64,000 nt of DNA. Source: Chlamydiae bacterium RIFCSPLOWO2_12_FULL_45_20 (GTDB taxonomy: Bacteria; Chlamydiota; Chlamydiia; Chlamydiales; SM23-39). Position numbers and translations under genes: made by a program. Each line of letters begins with the position of its first letter. Position 1 is the first letter of the stretch. This document shows, one piece after another, positions 55,896 to 62,643 of the stretch. The stretch lies in assembly GCA_001796285.1 (NCBI GenBank), contig MGMD01000001.1:10143-74142 (forward strand), written 5' to 3'. The notes under the pieces were generated by a model. It was given only the letters and a program-made list of their open reading frames with translations, had not been told where the DNA came from and ran no database searches.

Positions 55896-56891
55896 ATGGA
55901 GATGATGATCCTTCTTGTTGTTATCTTGGGACTGGTCTTTGATTATACCAACGGTTTTCACGATGCGGCAAATGTAGTTTCCACGGTCATTGCCACAAAA
56001 GTTCTTGCGCCTATTTCCGCCATTGTATTGGCGGGAGTCCTCAATTTTATTGGAGCGACCCAAATTAGCGGTGTGGCGCAAACCGTTGCCTCAGGCCTGG
56101 TCGAAGCACAAAACACCAACATATTGGTCGTCCTTGCCGCTGTCATTGGAGCGATTTTTTGGAATCTTATTACCTGGCGTTTTGGAATCCCCAGCAGTTC
56201 ATCGTATGCCTTGATTGGGGGGTTGATTGGTTCAGCGTGGACCTATCAAGGAGCAGACATCATTATTTGGAAAGGGCTGATTGGCAAAGTCATTCTTCCC
56301 ATGGTTTTTACGCCCATTCTTGGGTTTATCATAGCCCATCTTTCGATGAAGGTGCTCTATGCCTACCTCGCCAATAAAGGGCACGGCCATGGAAAAGGTA
56401 TATTTCGGCATCTTCAAATTGGATCTGCCTGTATGATCGCTCTTTCTCATGGACTCAACGATGCTCAAAAGAGCATGGGGATTATCACTCTCGGCCTTTT
56501 TTCTGGAGGATATCTCTCCACCACACAGATCCCTTTTTGGGTCATTGTGGCCTGCGCTCTTGTGATGGGCTTAGGTACGGCAACTGGCGGCTTTCGGATT
56601 ATTCGGACGATGGCGTTTTCGATTACGAAAATCGAGCCAGCTCAAGGATTTGCCGCCGAGCTGTCCGCTTCCCTTGTGATTCTTGTTGCAAGCTTTATGG
56701 GAATGCCTGTGAGCTCCACGCAAATGATCGCGGGGAGCATTACGGGGGTAGGATCTGCGAAAAGCTTAAAAGCTGTACAGTGGAAAGTGCCCCAGAAATT
56801 TATCTACGTTTGGCTGCTAACCCTTCCCTGTGCAGCGCTGATGGGCAGCTTGGCCTATATGATCGTCTCCCGAGTCGGCAAAAGCTCTTGA
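55896..56891 (+). CDS. inorganic phosphate transporter, PiT family
   Basis: NGFHDAANVVSTVIAT in the first half and HGLNDAQKSMGII in the second are the duplicated PHO4/PiT signature. Confidence 0.88.
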   Translation: MEMMILLVVILGLVFDYTNGFHDAANVVSTVIATKVLAPISAIVLAGVLNFIGATQISGVAQTVASGLVEAQNTNILVVLAAVIGAIFWNLITWRFGIPSSSSYALIGGLIGSAWTYQGADIIIWKGLIGKVILPMVFTPILGFIIAHLSMKVLYAYLANKGHGHGKGIFRHLQIGSACMIALSHGLNDAQKSMGIITLGLFSGGYLSTTQIPFWVIVACALVMGLGTATGGFRIIRTMAFSITKIEPAQGFAAELSASLVILVASFMGMPVSSTQMIAGSITGVGSAKSLKAVQWKVPQKFIYVWLLTLPCAALMGSLAYMIVSRVGKSS

Positions 56892-56944
56892 AAAGAATCG
56901 CCTTCTTTGGCACCTTGTCCTAGCAAAAGACTCTTCTATCTCTT

Positions 56945-58636
56945 ATGAGAAAAAATCGAACTTTTGTCCCGAAATCTTGGGACTTCGTGTTTCGCCACTA
57001 CCAATGGTCATATCTTAAAAATGACTTGTTTGCAGGCATTACGGTCGGATTAGTCGCGCTGCCCCTCGCTATGGCCTTTGCCATTGCATCAGGGGCTCCT
57101 CCCGAAAGAGGTCTTTATACAGCCATTATTGCAGGTTTTCTCATTTCTCTATTAGGGGGAAGTCGGTATCAGATTGGCGGCCCTACAGGGGCCTTCGTCG
57201 TCATTATCTTTAGCATTATCCAAAGACACGGCTATGACGGTTTGGTATTCACTACGCTTGCGGCCTCTATTCTGCTTCTGATTGCCGCTTTTACCAAGTT
57301 AGGCGATTGGATCAAGTATATTCCTTACCCTTTAGTGACTGGCTTTACTACGGGAATCGCCGTTATTATCTTTTCATCGCAGGTGAAAGACTTTCTTGGG
57401 CTGAACATCGCCTACATGCCAGCCGATTTTATTCCCAAGTGGGCGGCCATACTTTCCTCTTTTTCTACGATCAATTACGCAGCTTTTGGCGTAGCTTCCG
57501 GAACGCTCATTCTCATCCTCCTCATTCGAAGGTTTACTCCTTTTCTTCCCTGGGGAATCACGTCTGTTGTCATTGCGACCTTCGCAACGTGGTTTTTTGA
57601 CTTACCTGTCGAGACCATCTATTCGAAGTTTGGTGAGCTAAAAAGAGCTTTCCCAACGCTCTCCTTACCCTCTTTTTCCTTCCATGCTAATGATTGGAGA
57701 TCGTTCGTGATGGACTCGTTTACCATCGCCTTTTTGGCTGGAGTCGAGTCGCTTCTTTCCGCAGTGGTTGCTGATGGGATGGGCGGGACTAAGCACAAAT
57801 CGAACTGCGAGCTCATGGCGCAAGGCATCGCGAACATTGCCGCCGTCTCTTTTGGGGGGCTCCCTGCGACGGGAGCTATAGCAAGAACAGCGACGAACGT
57901 GAAATCGGGAGCTAAAACTCCTCTTTCTGGAATGATCCATGCACTGACCCTGGTTTTGATTCTCCTCTTTTGTGCGCCGCTAGTCAGTCAAATTTCGCTG
58001 GCTTGTTTATCTGCAGTACTCGTGATGATTGCTTGGAACATGAGTGAAGTCAGCCATTTTCGCCGACTTTTCAAAGCCCCCATTGGGGACATTTCGGTCC
58101 TCTTGACAACCTTTTTGCTGACAGTTCTTGTCGATCTGACTGTAGCTGTAGCGATCGGCATGATCCTCGCGGCCTTTTTATTTATGAAAAGGGTCGGGGA
58201 CATTTCCGCTGTCATATCGCTATCTTCATTGCAAAAACAAGACACAACAGATGAGGAGACTTATGATCTCGATGCAATCGAGAGGAAAGAAGTTCCTCCA
58301 CATACGGAAGTCTATGAAATCGCGGGGCCGTTTTTCTTTGGTGTTGCAGACAGTTTAAAAAATATTCTTACCAATCTCGAACAGCCCCCAAAGGTCTTCA
58401 TCCTGAGGCTGAGAAAAGTCCCTGTTATTGATGCAAGTGGAATGCATGCTTTAATGGATTTTTACCTCAAATGCAAAAGGCAGGGAACCCTCCTTCTTCT
58501 CTCAGGAGTCAGCATAACCTTGATGGGGGCTCTTGAGAAATTCGGGATTGTCCAGCATATTGGCAAACACAACGTTTTCACTCATATCGACCACGCCCTC
58601 CATTTTGCTAGACAATTCCTAAATAGGTGCACGTGA
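56945..58636 (+). CDS. SulP-family anion transporter with C-terminal STAS domain
   Basis: DLFAGITVGLVALPLAMAFAIASG, the GAIARTATNVKSGAKT loop, and a C-terminal VYEIAGPFFFGVAD...ILRLRKVPVIDASG STAS domain. Confidence 0.88.
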   Translation: MRKNRTFVPKSWDFVFRHYQWSYLKNDLFAGITVGLVALPLAMAFAIASGAPPERGLYTAIIAGFLISLLGGSRYQIGGPTGAFVVIIFSIIQRHGYDGLVFTTLAASILLLIAAFTKLGDWIKYIPYPLVTGFTTGIAVIIFSSQVKDFLGLNIAYMPADFIPKWAAILSSFSTINYAAFGVASGTLILILLIRRFTPFLPWGITSVVIATFATWFFDLPVETIYSKFGELKRAFPTLSLPSFSFHANDWRSFVMDSFTIAFLAGVESLLSAVVADGMGGTKHKSNCELMAQGIANIAAVSFGGLPATGAIARTATNVKSGAKTPLSGMIHALTLVLILLFCAPLVSQISLACLSAVLVMIAWNMSEVSHFRRLFKAPIGDISVLLTTFLLTVLVDLTVAVAIGMILAAFLFMKRVGDISAVISLSSLQKQDTTDEETYDLDAIERKEVPPHTEVYEIAGPFFFGVADSLKNILTNLEQPPKVFILRLRKVPVIDASGMHALMDFYLKCKRQGTLLLLSGVSITLMGALEKFGIVQHIGKHNVFTHIDHALHFARQFLNRCT

Positions 58637-58784
58637 GACCTCTTGAATCCTGTCCAGGATAGCAAAAAAAAACACCACAAACTACTGAAAATAAATCGAT
58701 TGAATAATAATACGCGTATTCAAATGTTATTTAAATAAAAGCGGCCTTTGTTTATAATAATAACAAAACAAAAAAATACAACAA

Positions 58785-59063
58785 ATGAATAGCTTAAACC
58801 ACATACAAACAGTAATAATTAGTAGAGATTGTAGAATTTTTTATATAATTGAAAGCACAGAAAAACAACAACGAAACAATATCCAAAAAATCATATCTAA
58901 TCTACAAAAAGTTATAAAAAACAACTCCACATACGGAGGTCTCTTACCTCACTACAAACAGCTGAATAAGGAACAATTAAACAGTATCGTTCACGATCTG
59001 CAAAAAGCCCTTGCTATTCCAGACCATTCTGAAACTGAAATGACCGTATTGCGAAAAAAGTAA
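58785..59063 (+). CDS. small hypothetical protein (weak call)
   Basis: 92-aa ORF in AT-rich DNA. Its last ~15 codons lie in direct repeat 1, and the same reading frame is preserved in repeat 2. Confidence 0.3.
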   Translation: MNSLNHIQTVIISRDCRIFYIIESTEKQQRNNIQKIISNLQKVIKNNSTYGGLLPHYKQLNKEQLNSIVHDLQKALAIPDHSETEMTVLRKK

Positions 59064-59084
59064 TGCGAATCACTTAGGATATTA
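59018..59084 (+). repeat. direct repeat 1 flanking the RhuM islet
   Basis: tccagaccattctgaaactgaaatgaccgtattgcgaaaaaagtaatgcgaatcacttaggatatta recurs at 61266..61334 with one substitution and a 2-nt indel. Confidence 0.9.
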
Positions 59085-59199
59085 GACAAAGAGTACCACT
59101 TTAAGCAAGCAACGTGGCATGAAGAATGAAAAAAGGGGGTAAGTATGATCAGCGGACAAGGGTTCTTTTCCGCGGGGTCTATAATATTCTAGAGAAAAA

Positions 59200-59784
59200 T
59201 TACCATTCATTCCTCTTGCCTGGAACTCCTCCTCCTAGATGCCTTGTTGCATAAGGCTGGAAACAAGGGGCAAGCAATTCTTTCCCATAGGCGCAACGCT
59301 CGAAGGTAGCGTATAATTTTCTTCCATTATCAGGTAGGATTAGCCCGTATAAAGCTGACAATTCTAAACCTATATAAATGATTGGTGAGAAAGCTATACG
59401 TAGCAAATCCTTGCCAAAGGACCAGCTTTTTTCACTGAGCGAATAGTGGTCTGATGAAGAGTGCCAAAAGTGTGCAAAAGAAACAATTTTGGCAATTCGA
59501 TTTGCCAAGTTAAGTACAAGACCAATTGCATGGAGAATCGGTGTAGCTGCCACTAGTCCTAGACATTTTAATCGCGTGATATATGGATTGTCTTCCCAAT
59601 ACTGATCACCATTACTTAAATCGACACCACTTTCAAAGCTTGTATAGGGGAGAAAGTGAGAAAAAGAGACTGGACGATTATGTCGCTCATTGCAGTCATT
59701 CTTGACAACCTCACCAAACTGCTCACCTATATGTCGAGTTGCCGCTGGTAAAAAGTCAGTAAAAATAAAACGAATTGTTGACAT
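59200..59784 (-). CDS. hypothetical membrane protein (two hydrophobic hairpin-like segments)
   Basis: 194-aa ORF with CLGLVAATPILHAIGLVLNLA and IAFSPIIYIGLELSALYGLIL. No family recognised. It lies inside the repeat-bounded islet. Confidence 0.45.
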   Translation of the reverse strand: MSTIRFIFTDFLPAATRHIGEQFGEVVKNDCNERHNRPVSFSHFLPYTSFESGVDLSNGDQYWEDNPYITRLKCLGLVAATPILHAIGLVLNLANRIAKIVSFAHFWHSSSDHYSLSEKSWSFGKDLLRIAFSPIIYIGLELSALYGLILPDNGRKLYATFERCAYGKELLAPCFQPYATRHLGGGVPGKRNEW

Positions 59785-60121
59785 GCTCTTCCTTTTCTCT
59801 CTTTTCCGCGAGTTATTTTATCATGGTTACGCAAGATCTATTGTTATTCGTGGAGTGGAATTTATTTTTTTACTCTCTCTCAATGCGTTCATTATAAGGT
59901 ATATAGATGTAATTTCTAAAATCAGATGGTCATGCTGTGCTGTGAGAAACAGGCTTGTAAAAACTTGAGTAGTACATTTTTTACTTAATAGCCTTGCAAT
60001 GCAGCTGTGCCATTTATGATTTGGGTAGCTTCCCAGAGCTTACGATCAATTTTTGCTTTTCAGGCCCATTTTTCTGACGTCAGGAAAATGGTCATTCCCT
60101 TGTAAAAAGTCCTAGCCTCTT

Positions 60122-61132
60122 TTAATCTGTAGGAGCTTCGCTTCGCTTGGCTTTTTCTCGGATCGCCTCAAGAAGAGCAATATCTTCCTCATCAGCGCGC
60201 AGTCTCTCTTCTTTATGATTAAATTCCGAATAGCGCTCAAGAGAGAGTTTTTCTGCTACTTGTGCGGATATTTTACCTGCGTGATTTAAGAGATCTTTCT
60301 CGTTAAAGCTAAGAAACATGTCCAGTTTTTCTTCCCATTCTCTCATTGTTATCGTCTTCCGACGTTTTGCTTGTAACTCCGCATAATCCAAATACATGAC
60401 AACGATTTGATTTAGCTCTTCCAGCTCTGCTTGAGTAAGGTAATTTTTAGCGATAGTCACGTCTTGTTGACGCACACGACTTCCTTCCCAACTTGTCAAG
60501 CCCATATTAGGCAACTTTGGGTCTGCTCGCTCTATAATCAATTCGGCTGCTGTTTTATGGGTTGTAGCCCAGAGCATTTTATTCTGAACTTTTTTGAAAA
60601 ACAGTTGAGCTTGATCACTTTTAGCATCGTAATCGACCGCTGTTGCGTAAATATCTCGCACTTTCTGATAGAAACGCTTTTCGGAAGCTCGGATCTCTCG
60701 AATTCGAGCCAAGCACTCGTCAAAATAATCATTGCCCCCAGGCTGCTTCAAGCGCTCATCATCCATTACAAAACCCTTAACGAGGTATTCCTGGAGGTGA
60801 ATTGTTGCCCATTTCCGAAATTGCATACCGCGAGGAGAGCGAACGCGGTAGCCAATTGCAAGTATTACACTAAGATTGTAAAACTTGAGACTCCTCTGAA
60901 TCGTTCTTTTCCCTTCAGATTGAACTTGTAAGGATTCCTTACAAGTTGCGGCTTCATCCAGCTCATTGTCAGCGTAAATAGCTCGTAGATGTGTGGTTAT
61001 ATTTTGAGGAGTTGTCTGGAAGAGCTCAGCGATTTCAGCCTGGGTTAGCCAAACAGTGCCGTCTTGGGTCCTGAGTTGAATGGAAGCTGTCCCATCTTCT
61101 GTGGTGTATAGAACAATTTCTCCATTTGCCAT
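60122..61132 (-). CDS. rhuM: RhuM-family protein
   Basis: MANGEIVLYTTEDGTASIQLRTQDGTVWLTQAEIAELFQTTPQNITTHL...FYNLSVILAIGYRVRSPRGMQFRKWAT follows the RhuM family N-terminal pattern. Confidence 0.8.
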   Translation of the reverse strand: MANGEIVLYTTEDGTASIQLRTQDGTVWLTQAEIAELFQTTPQNITTHLRAIYADNELDEAATCKESLQVQSEGKRTIQRSLKFYNLSVILAIGYRVRSPRGMQFRKWATIHLQEYLVKGFVMDDERLKQPGGNDYFDECLARIREIRASEKRFYQKVRDIYATAVDYDAKSDQAQLFFKKVQNKMLWATTHKTAAELIIERADPKLPNMGLTSWEGSRVRQQDVTIAKNYLTQAELEELNQIVVMYLDYAELQAKRRKTITMREWEEKLDMFLSFNEKDLLNHAGKISAQVAEKLSLERYSEFNHKEERLRADEEDIALLEAIREKAKRSEAPTD

Positions 61133-61265
61133 GGTTTAGTACTCACATCTTGATAAAATTTTGAAAATAGCATAACTGAAGAGGCTAGTCGCTGCCAATC
61201 AAAAGTTGAGTCTGAATGCGTCCAGCCGCCTCCACCTCCAATGCTTTGTTCAATAGACTTGCCAC

Positions 61266-61334
61266 TCCAGACCATTCTGAAACTGAAATGACCGTATTGC
61301 GAAAAAAATAATGCGGGAATCACTTAGGATATTA
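61266..61334 (+). repeat. direct repeat 2 flanking the RhuM islet
   Basis: See 59018..59084. Its 3' end (taggatatta) coincides with the start of the duplicated gene fragment. Confidence 0.9.
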
Positions 61335-61493
61335 CAAACTCTTTCAGAACCCTCTGAAAAGAGCCGACGAACAATACATGCGCACCGTGCCAAGACTCGA
61401 ATATTCGCTTTGCCAGGAACTTATTCCTCTTCAAGTCTTTTTTAGACCCGGAAGCATACTATAAAGCCATTCGAAGACTTTGAAGCCGCCGCT
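61325..61493 (-). pseudogene. partial third copy (3' portion) of the tRNA-proximal small gene
   Basis: 61325..61439 aligns by eye with 61504..61619 (taggatattacaaactctttcag...caagtctt), and the following ~55 nt align with 61620..61670. There is no start codon of its own, and copy B reads into it. Confidence 0.65.
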
Positions 61494-61859
61494 GGAAGCG
61501 GGGTAGGATATTACAAACTCTTTCAGGACCGTCTGATCAAAGCGGACGAACAATACTTTCGCACCGTGCCAAGGCTTCAATATTTCCTTTACCACGGCCT
61601 CGCTCTGATTCAAGTCTTGTTCAGTCTCGAGACCATACCATAGATCCAATCGAAGACTTTGAGGCCGCTGAAAGCATCGAGCGAGATCTTCCAATATCGT
61701 TCCTAAATAGCCCTTTTTACCGGTAACGGTGATTGTTTGAAATATTCTCCCTCCGTATTGTCGGCATACCTCTTGGGGAATGCACTCCTCCATATTCTCA
61801 TTATTAAATATGATCGAGCCTCCAGATATTGTTACGCCTATAGGCAATACATTAGCCAT
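61431..61859 (-). CDS. small hypothetical protein, tandem copy B
   Basis: MANVLPIGVTISGGSIIFNNENMEECIPQEVCRQYGGRIFQTITVTGKK is highly similar to copy A. AGGAG lies 5 nt upstream of ATG 61859 (the track start at 61925 is a TTG). The C-terminal 24 aa derive from the adjoining duplicated fragment. Confidence 0.45.
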   Translation of the reverse strand: MANVLPIGVTISGGSIIFNNENMEECIPQEVCRQYGGRIFQTITVTGKKGYLGTILEDLARCFQRPQSLRLDLWYGLETEQDLNQSEAVVKEILKPWHGAKVLFVRFDQTVLKEFVISYPASSGGFKVFEWLYSMLPGLKKT

Positions 61860-61883
61860 TTTTTCTCCTTTAAAGGGGTTTGT

Positions 61884-61909
61884 CGAAAGAGGTAGGTGAA
61901 CCCCTACGG
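61884..61909 (-). pseudogene. decayed remnant of the tRNA-Ser 3' end (acceptor/T-arm)
   Basis: cgaaagaggtaggtgaacccctacgg compared with cggaagaggtaggattcgaacccacgg of the intact tRNA. It occupies the same position relative to the gene copy, and the tRNA 5'-flank sequence attataacRatacaaccattatttgg follows at 61928 as it does at 62600. Confidence 0.7.
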
Positions 61910-62027
61910 AATCATGACGACACAACGATTATAACGATACAACCATTATTTGGCAAGTGCTCATAAAGTTGAGCCGGAAGTATAATGGTACATATTGACC
62001 CCCTGACGCTTGTGGAAGAGACTTCTC

Positions 62028-62123
62028 TCAGGTGTTTTGGATCATCTTTTTGAAGTTTGCCCAGAAAACCTCAACTGGATTGGAATCTGGTGACTATGGG
62101 GAAAGAAAAAAAACCTTTACAAC
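62028..62123 (-). pseudogene. IS630/Tc1-mariner-family transposase C-terminal relic
   Basis: The reverse strand reads VVKVFFLSP*SPDSNPVEVFWANFKKMIQNT*, i.e. the LPPYSPDLNPIExxW motif with the Tyr codon mutated to TAG. Confidence 0.6.
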
Positions 62124-62480
62124 CTACCTAATTACAAAATTTTCCAGGATCTGCCGGTTGTTGCAGAGAAACAATACACACGCACCGCGCCAAGGCTGTA
62201 ATACTTGCTGTGCCACGGCCTTACTCTTATTCAAGTCCTCTGGAGTCTCGACACCATACCATAGATCCAATCGAAGACTTTGAGGCTGTTGAAAGTATTT
62301 AGCGAGATCGCTCAATATCGTTCCTAAATACATCTTTTTACCGGTAACGGTGATTGTTTGAAAGCTTCTTCCTCCGTATTGTTCGCATACCTCTTGGGGA
62401 ATGCACAGATCCATATTCTCATTATCAAATGTGATCGAGTTTCCAGATATTGTTACGCCTATAGGCAATACATTAGCCAT
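62124..62480 (-). CDS. small hypothetical protein, tandem copy A (adjacent to tRNA-Ser)
   Basis: 118-aa ORF with AGGAG 5 nt upstream of ATG 62480, which lies 24 nt from the tRNA 3' end. Its stop codon is in frame with the IS630-like relic. Confidence 0.45.
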   Translation of the reverse strand: MANVLPIGVTISGNSITFDNENMDLCIPQEVCEQYGGRSFQTITVTGKKMYLGTILSDLAKYFQQPQSLRLDLWYGVETPEDLNKSKAVAQQVLQPWRGACVLFLCNNRQILENFVIR

Positions 62481-62504
62481 TTTTGCTCCTTTAAAAGGGG
62501 TTGT

Positions 62505-62589
62505 CGGAAGAGGTAGGATTCGAACCCACGGACCCGTGAAGGTCTCCTGTTTTCAAGACAGGTGCAATCGGCCGCTCTGCCACTCTTCC
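62505..62589 (-). tRNA. tRNA-Ser (anticodon UGA), type II with long variable arm, no encoded CCA
   Basis: Reverse complement GGAAGAGTGGCAGAGCGGCCGATTGCACCTGTCTTGAAAACAGGAGACCTTCACGGGTCCGTGGGTTCGAATCCTACCTCTTCCG. Acceptor stem is 7 bp, the anticodon loop is CTTGAAA, and the GGTTCGAATCC T-loop is present. Confidence 0.93.
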
Positions 62590-62643
62590 AGAGCCAAAAA
62601 TTATAACAATACAACCATTATTTGGAAATCCATTCTTGCAAAA

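Follow-up and report, generated by a model that had tools for sequence, protein, structure and literature searches.

A RhuM-carrying patch between direct repeats in an environmental chlamydia: a mosaic of relocated pieces at a duplicated gene junction

The genome of Chlamydiae bacterium RIFCSPLOWO2_12_FULL_45_20 (GCA_001796285.1), an environmental chlamydia from aquifer metagenomes represented by a metagenome-assembled draft of 1.54 Mb, carries a small patch of accessory genes bracketed by long direct repeats. We analyzed a stretch of 64,000 nucleotides of this genome (contig MGMD01000001.1, positions 10,143 to 74,142; here called the window), in which two repeat copies, at 59010-59084 (75 nt) and 61258-61334 (77 nt), enclose 2,173 nt of cargo that includes a RhuM-family gene and a gene for a small membrane protein, orf194. 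A preliminary description of the window had taken the repeats for the attachment sites (attL and attR) of an integrative element linked to a nearby tRNA-Ser gene. Our analysis points elsewhere: the repeat is a copied junction between two convergent genes, the cargo is a mosaic whose RhuM portion appears to come from cassette arrays that relatives hold at tRNA-Tyr and transfer-messenger RNA (tmRNA) genes, and the explanation that we favor for the repeat pair is the scar of a single insertion by recombination that was not site specific. The features of the patch, from left to right, are as follows.

58785-59063, + strand: orf92, a 92-aa AT-rich ORFan whose last 17 codons and stop make up most of the left repeat
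59010-59084, + strand: left repeat copy, consisting of orf92 codons 76 to 92 and TAA, a 12-nt spacer, and TAGGATATTA
59085-59177, no strand assigned: left filler piece, of obscure origin and with no similarity in relatives
59178-59897, - strand: orf194 module, made up of the gene (59200-59784), encoding a 194-aa protein, and its own flanks
59977-60096, - strand: relic of a DinD-like/BRO-N-type cassette gene, of which only fragments matching aa 270 to 283 and 65 to 74 are left (tblastn with the G012 gene)
60122-61132, - strand: RhuM-family gene, intact, encoding 336 aa, with a full-length match to PF13310 (E=2.8e-112)
61187-61242, + strand: attR-like element on the 5' side of RhuM, with the arm CCAATCAAAAGTT(GAGT)CTGAATGCG and then GTCCAGCCGCCTCCA
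61243-61257, no strand assigned: filler, 15 nt between the attR-like element and the right repeat, with a sharp junction
61258-61334, + strand: right repeat copy, which keeps the orf92 frame (LATPDHSETEMTVLRKK, then the stop), has no gene body upstream, and runs directly into unit0, a duplicated unit described below

Composition and copy number of the direct repeats

The two repeat copies differ by three substitutions and one 2-nt insertion or deletion (indel), i.e., at four places, and are ~94 to 95% identical. The preliminary description had placed them at 59018-59084 and 61266-61334, with one substitution and a 2-nt indel between them, and this proved exact: within those limits we find a single G/A substitution (59060/61308) and an extra GG in the right copy. 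The weaker similarity that it had reported farther to the left is also present, with 6 of 8 nt matching in the leftmost part of the pair, outside 59018/61266. A perfect core of 42 nt (59018-59059 = 61266-61307) occurs twice in the window, versus 0.00 occurrences expected from 100 shuffles, and these are the only two copies of the repeat in the whole genome. A degenerate pattern of the repeat gave 0 matches each in the metagenome and genome collections that we scanned, where records of the window's own genome and population may have been masked.

The 10-mer that ends the left repeat, TAGGATATTA, is the reverse complement of the final codons (Ile-Ser-stop) of an orf118-like gene, orf118 being an ORFan close to the tRNA-Ser gene. 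Read in the frame of orf92, two of the three substitutions in the right copy are synonymous, and the spacer there is 14 nt long, versus 12 nt in the left copy. With this composition, the repeat is a duplicated convergent gene junction, formed by the 3' end of orf92 and the 3' end of an orf118-like gene, and not tRNA sequence. No orf92 trace was found upstream of 61258, and identity there is at background within the 24 nt preceding the att-like element. A tblastn match that might have extended the orf92 relic beyond the right repeat (45% over 51 aa) contained six stops and was carried by 17 terminal residues, 16 of them identical, and we rejected it.

We also examined the ends of the cargo. There are no inverted repeats of at least 20 nt at these ends, and the search for terminal inverted repeats and short target duplications returned only a 6-nt ACAAAG/CTTTGT match, which was not significant. 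The patch shows none of the hallmarks of a composite transposon or insertion sequence (IS), namely, flanking IS copies or terminal inverted repeats together with a short target-site duplication.

Both genes of the junction are private to this population. orf92 matched no Pfam, NCBIfam, or PADLOC family; neither it nor orf118 has a homologue in 102 genomes of the family, none of which contains the locus itself. Among 5.8 billion proteins, the sole match to orf92 was a 99% variant from the same aquifer samples. Given the lack of any homologue outside the population, a dedicated phage- or element-borne attachment site (attP) matching orf92 is implausible, and since orf92 and orf118 are ORFans of this population, the junction offers no conserved integration target.

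An orf92 variant with the substitution S38Y is found on an 863-bp contig (L077) from another sample of the aquifer series. This contig terminates 2 nt past the orf92 stop, inside the left repeat, and its initial 140 nt are unlike the window. Low coverage or chimerism is the probable reason, and the contig is uninformative on the empty site.

Mosaic cargo and a cassette displaced from tRNA-Tyr/tmRNA arrays

The cargo is made up of four separate pieces, and similarity to relatives stops at the boundary of each piece. Its GC content, 0.39 to 0.44, is not clearly distinct from that of the flanks. In agreement with the earlier statement that no integrase or transposase lies inside, a Pfam profile search of the cargo's open reading frames (ORFs) found no match to a recombinase or transposase family; for PF00589 and PF00239, the nearest matches are on other contigs.

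The RhuM protein, already recognized as such in the preliminary description, matches PF13310 with 374.5 bits (cutoff, 33.7) over profile positions 1 to 249 of 252 and matches the PADLOC candidate PDC-S05 with an E value of 2.6e-147. It is the sole full-length copy in the genome. At the nucleotide level it is 85% identical to its same-genus homologue in G007 and 85 to 91% identical, in two pieces, to that in G012. Protein identity to G007 is 89% for RhuM, versus 75% for PheS and 82% for RplT, which suggests horizontal spread of RhuM within the genus and lends support to the earlier view that the bracketed DNA came from elsewhere. RhuM-like domains have been proposed as toxin domains in restriction-modification and PrrC contexts (PMC3710099), and the protein encoded here is a candidate single-gene defense or toxin protein.

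The attR-like element on the 5' side of RhuM belongs to a junction element that is widespread in the family, in which an arm, CCAATCAAAAGTTCTGAATGCG, is followed by 13 to 15 nt identical to the 3' terminus of tRNA-Tyr or tmRNA. In the window, GTCCAGCCGCCTCCA resembles the tRNA-Tyr 3' end, and the tail of the element, CTCCACCTCCAAT, is the same as the 3' end of this genome's tmRNA plus 2 nt. Positions 61187-61242 match a profile of 36 copies with an E value of 5.5e-11 (the alignment holds 38 copies), and the element is present in 42 of the 102 family genomes. Its copies often form arrays, with two to five copies in one orientation at a spacing of 0.6 to 2 kb; array loci include L021 (G012), L046 (G105), L048 (G101), L049 (G011), L050 and L051 (G064), and L020 (G007). 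In the loci that we fetched, and where the anchor was in view, the arrays are anchored behind tRNA-Tyr (G012, G017, G011, and G081) or tmRNA (G105). Three genomes (G017, G012, and that of the window) have a copy of the element after which the native downstream flank of the tRNA or tmRNA continues, which identifies these copies as attR-type repeats. The cassettes of the arrays carry, in either orientation, RhuM, DinD-like, toxin-antitoxin-like (judged by eye from sequence), and further accessory genes. The fetched loci showed no integrase in or adjoining the arrays, and several array-bearing genomes have two Xer-type recombinases only.

The window genome has an islet of this kind at its own tmRNA (G000:C1:133701-134072). 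This islet, 1.15 kb long, ends in an attR-type copy at C1:132532-132576 (arm, tmRNA 3' end, and terminator flank) and contains, within G000:C1:132532-133701, an ORF of 149 aa and a truncated RhuM N terminus (80 aa). The tRNA-Tyr gene of this genome is on contig C23; the cassette in the window lies instead between SulP and tRNA-Ser, away from the positions at which the arrays are found, and it is bounded by the element on one side only, with no second copy across RhuM. Because the RhuM piece carries the arm-plus-core element of the tRNA-Tyr/tmRNA arrays, it appears to be a displaced array fragment and not the product of integration at tRNA-Ser.

Other identities for the element were considered and rejected. 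The 36-nt sequence upstream of RhuM does not look like a structured RNA, a known RNA family, or an attC-like hairpin, since its core folded with a z-score of ~0 and Rfam gave no match there, and the element is not a whole tRNA or tmRNA fragment, since only its last 13 to 15 nt match tRNA-Tyr or tmRNA 3' ends.

The DinD-like relic on the other side of RhuM has DNA matches to G011, G101, G118, and G012. It contains a near-perfect 26-nt palindrome at 60066-60091 (24 of 26 positions; CCATTTTTCTGACGTCAGGAAAATGG), and the same palindromic stretch is kept inside the DinD-like genes of several related genomes, with matches on both strands.

The second gene of the cargo, orf194, had been described as a membrane orphan with two hairpins. 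Two hydrophobic segments are indeed predicted by hydropathy (approximately aa 70 to 106 and 124 to 152), but the gene is not an orphan: homologues occur in 36 of the 102 family genomes and in 74 clusters of a large protein database, of which the named ones are assigned to Rhabdochlamydiaceae, Chlamydiia, or Chlamydiales, and the same genome has a paralogue at G000:C1:119949-120473. Its best matches among species representatives come from other genera. Contigs L078 to L083 encode proteins 79 to 89% identical to orf194; their nucleotide homology (80 to 87%) is confined to 59178-59897, starting at 59178-59203 depending on the contig, and they have different neighbors and no RhuM. orf194 is thus a member of a widespread, chlamydia-restricted membrane-protein family. 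Inc-like (inclusion-membrane) proteins are recognized by a bilobed hydrophobic domain, a type III secretion signal, and an inclusion-membrane location, and a role of this kind may be suggested for orf194 from its sequence. The neighborhood of the paralogue (G000:C1:119158-120705) is a junk-rich spot with, as judged by eye, an apparent group II intron maturase fragment and a transposase C-terminal fragment.

The PiT-to-tRNA-Ser zone and fixation of the insert

The patch lies between two blocks that are syntenic in relatives, one ending with PiT (55896-56891) and the other consisting of tRNA-Ser-pheS-rplT. The interval between them measures 5.6 kb here (56892-62502) versus 28 to 33 kb in G013 (G013:C1:366635-394597) and G009 (G009:C8:24861-58198), where it contains ~25 to 30 genes that are mostly absent from the window genome, some of them common to both relatives. 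The 3' flank of tRNA-Ser is different in every relative examined. SulP, which stands beside PiT here (56945-58636), occupies another, conserved slot between two conserved genes in four of four same-genus relatives examined, and this contrast in position indicates that SulP has been relocated; the corresponding slot in the window genome (G000:C24:8730-9573) has no SulP and holds a small Tyr/Gly-rich secreted-peptide ORF instead. The right part of the interval, from the end of the right repeat to the tRNA gene, contains the following features.

61325-61503, - strand: unit0, the last third (C-terminal) of an orf118-like gene, in tandem duplication with 61504-61682 (179 bp, 79% identity)
61504-61956, - strand: unit1, an orf118 paralogue with a decayed tRNA-Ser stub and a copy of the tRNA promoter region
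61974-62126, - strand: relic of an IS630-type transposase and IS end, between unit1 and unit2 (DDE_3 positions 105 to 135, E=0.002)
62124-62480, - strand: orf118, an ORFan that exists only as 2.5 local copies
62503-62590, - strand: intact tRNA-Ser(tga), the right anchor of the variable zone, followed by pheS-rplT

The tRNA-Ser gene, the only hit in an Rfam search of the region, is intact and lies 1,169 nt from the right repeat, matching the distance of ~1.2 kb first reported. What separates it from the repeat is an unrelated tandem-duplication array. unit1 and unit2 represent a duplication of ~620 bp comprising orf118, tRNA-Ser, and the promoter, at 84% identity, and the tRNA-Ser stub in unit1 (61880-61922) has lost ~50 nt internally. 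The IS630-type relic, which lies outside the repeat-bracketed segment, has copies of 43 to 46 nt at the ends of contigs C9 and C10. Taken together, the tandem duplications, the IS relic, and the relocated SulP speak for repeated rearrangement of the stretch between PiT and tRNA-Ser, and the patch sits in a genus-level plasticity zone that was rebuilt in this lineage. orf118 might itself be a decayed IS630 transposase, but the DDE_3 match (E=0.002) falls only in the relic past its stop, and orf118 has no match.

Two further observations concern this array. The promoter-like site of tRNA-Ser, TTTCCA-17-TATAAT, is present twice, at 62600-62628 and 61928-61956; the copy upstream of the decayed stub is a better match (TTGCCA-17-TATAAT), and the duplicated site may now drive the orf118 paralogue. 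In addition, TAGGATATTA occurs at 59075-59084, 61325-61334, and 61504-61513, that is, at three rearrangement boundaries (where the left repeat ends, where unit0 starts, and where unit0 joins unit1). The left repeat ends right after this 10-mer and the unit0/unit1 junction falls right before it, so that two independent breakpoints lie no more than 10 nt apart. This clustering reflects either a breakpoint hotspot or coincidence.

We then asked whether the patch still moves, using assemblies from the population. orf92 is indexed in 40 assembly blocks and RhuM in 33, and the check was made on the 24 longest contigs for each gene. All of these contigs (~24 per gene) had the same gene arrangement with the insert present, and the nine that we fetched were 100% identical to the window over 8.5 to 11 kb. 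The locus is likewise identical in the sibling assembly GCA_001796255.1. An empty-site pattern (left unique flank, 65 to 90 nt, right unique flank) had 0 matches in metagenome contigs, among which records of the window's own population may have been masked. The insert is therefore fixed in the population as seen in these assemblies, and the patch itself gives no evidence of a new mobility mechanism.

Origin of the patch and comparison with known systems

We interpret the repeat pair as the scar of a single, non-site-specific recombinational insertion that is now fixed, and we put the probability of this explanation at roughly 0.55. The anatomy of the patch, its mosaic origin, the absence of a recombinase, the unique character of both the repeat and orf92, and the fixed state of the insert in the assemblies are observed; the type of recombination and the order of events are inferred. 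One event would have inserted 2.17 kb of mosaic, second-hand DNA at the convergent junction of orf92 and an orf118-like gene, duplicating the junction. The event could have been of any of three types: an illegitimate or template-switch insertion with target duplication, homology-facilitated illegitimate recombination, or a Campbell-type single crossover. The cargo would not have been self-mobile; its RhuM part would be a cassette torn from the integrase-less arrays held by relatives at tRNA-Tyr/tmRNA, and its orf194 part would be a stray member of the chlamydial membrane-protein family. The patch would now be immobile, and its sole plausible exit would be a rare homologous deletion across the 42-nt core, which would restore orf92 and the junction. 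In principle the perfect core could support such a RecA-type deletion. To that extent the suggestion that the islet is still excisable is conceivable, but excision of the att type is unsupported.

Several points count against this explanation. The mechanism is not observable from one fixed allele, and an insertion mediated by an integrase would likewise leave a repeat in which the 3' end of the target gene is restored. For a Campbell-type or homology-assisted event, a donor already containing the junction sequence is needed, and no donor is known. Finally, the repeats are ~5% different while the population shows no polymorphism, which implies either that the event is old or that the copies came from different alleles.

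A second explanation, which we regard as unlikely although it accounts for some of the same features, separates the repeat from the cargo. The right repeat would be the remnant of a second copy of orf92 and its junction, made by local tandem duplication in the manner of units 0, 1, and 2, and the cargo would later have overwritten the intervening DNA up to codon 76 of that copy; two events would be involved, with the repeat being the older. At least two other tandem duplications are found nearby (179 bp and ~620 bp), and the end of the left repeat and the start of the unit0/unit1 duplication flank the same TAGGATATTA, as would fit repeated slippage or unequal exchange. The right copy has also stayed in frame, with most of its substitutions synonymous. 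However, this explanation needs an extra event, the orf92 sequence that might be expected upstream of 61258 is absent, and the repeats are far more alike than the duplicated units, which are only 79 to 84% identical.

Somewhat more doubtful is the possibility that the repeats are true attL and attR sites of a small integrative islet, as the preliminary description had proposed. The responsible enzyme would have been a tyrosine or serine recombinase, either lost in the meantime or encoded elsewhere in the genome; it would have inserted a circle with the orf92 3' end in its attP, and the islet would still be excisable in trans. The repeat does span the final 17 codons of orf92 together with the stop and leaves that gene intact, which is the classic look of integration into the 3' end of a gene, and its length (75 nt) and perfect core (42 nt) fall within the range of att identity segments. 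The genome encodes three non-Xer tyrosine recombinases (on C2, C4, and C28) as well as serine recombinases (on C14 and C4, with a fragment on C24), and relatives hold integrase-less cassettes bounded by long repeats of a gene 3' end and its flank. Against this, no recombinase lies in or adjoining the patch, and the target gene is an ORFan of this population only, with which a dedicated attP is hard to reconcile. The nearest recombinase matches are on other contigs, and no third copy of the repeat lies near any recombinase gene or anywhere else. The cargo is a patchwork of relics and not a coherent element, the one att-type sequence in the patch belongs to the tRNA-Tyr/tmRNA cassette system, and no empty-site contig was found. 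The link to tRNA-Ser fares no better: the repeats are not tRNA sequence, their target is private, and the tRNA gene stands behind the unrelated tandem array.

A broader form of this idea, which we consider improbable, is that a recombinase encoded elsewhere acts in trans on TAGGATATTA and the 75-nt repeats, the clustering of three boundaries at this 10-mer then being no coincidence. On that view the patch would be a trans-mobilizable, integrase-less islet using a new kind of attachment site outside tRNA genes, related in its logic to the integrase-less tRNA-Tyr/tmRNA arrays of this chlamydial family. An assembly artifact, in which the metagenome assembler joined unrelated pieces at the shared 75-nt sequence, might be suspected from the draft nature of the genome and from the 863-bp contig of another sample that ends in the left repeat, but it can practically be dismissed, since contigs of 50 to 200 kb from 24 collection blocks (JGI, ENA, and NCBI assemblies) have the same arrangement, base for base in those fetched, and the four differences between the copies leave no identical run longer than 42 nt, so that ordinary reads span and distinguish them.

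Set beside known systems, the patch shares several features with tRNA-linked islands of tyrosine integrases: foreign accessory genes, including RhuM, beside a tRNA in a variable region and a direct repeat by which the interrupted gene regains its 3' end. Unlike in those islands, the repeat is not tRNA derived and lies 1.2 kb off, there is no integrase, the target is a population-specific ORFan, and the cargo is a patchwork of relics for which neither an empty site nor a second instance is known.

Cis-mobilizable elements (CIMEs), described in the ICESt1/ICESt3 family of integrative and conjugative elements (ICEs) of Streptococcus thermophilus, are flanked by att sites and carry no recombination genes. 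The patch resembles them in being repeat-flanked cargo without an integrase of its own. The flanks of CIMEs, however, are att sites of a known ICE integrase, resident or incoming, whereas those of the patch can be linked to no integrase and to no other copy of the repeat.

With the tRNA/tmRNA cassette arrays of related genomes (42 of 102), the patch shares the arm-plus-core element of RhuM, which bounds the array cassettes, and matching contents (RhuM, DinD-like, and toxin-antitoxin-like genes). It differs from them in that its cassette is not at tRNA-Tyr or tmRNA and has one junction element only, with a gene relic on the other side, and in that the 75-nt repeats bracketing it are unrelated to the junction element; it is a displaced fragment and not an array member in place. 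Tandem and often integrase-less arrays of cassettes or islands at tRNA/tmRNA genes are represented by the ssrA islands of Dehalococcoides (PMC3146451), and tycheposons with cargo remnants have been reported in Prochlorococcus (bioRxiv 10.1101/2020.12.28.424599). The ssrA islands and tycheposon remnants appear to be the closest published parallels of the chlamydial arrays.

The remaining comparison is with recombinational duplication-insertions. These resemble the patch in being one-off heterologous insertions with a flanking duplication of tens of bases and with neither a recombinase nor terminal inverted repeats nor a short target-site duplication, in a region with other scars of slippage and duplication; they differ in being mechanisms and not families, and the present sequence cannot tell which of them acted. 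Campbell-type crossover, homology-facilitated illegitimate recombination, and template-switch duplication-insertion are all mechanisms that give insertions with a flanking duplication. As genomic islets go, the patch is ordinary, and the group that carries it is under-studied. It shows at good resolution how environmental chlamydiae, whose genomes are reduced and contain few classic mobile elements, shuffle small accessory genes, here a candidate defense gene and a gene for a lineage-specific membrane protein. Its main value lies in the link between the RhuM patch and the family-wide integrase-less arrays at tRNA-Tyr/tmRNA, a link which indicates that array cassettes can leave the arrays and become fixed elsewhere by ordinary recombination.

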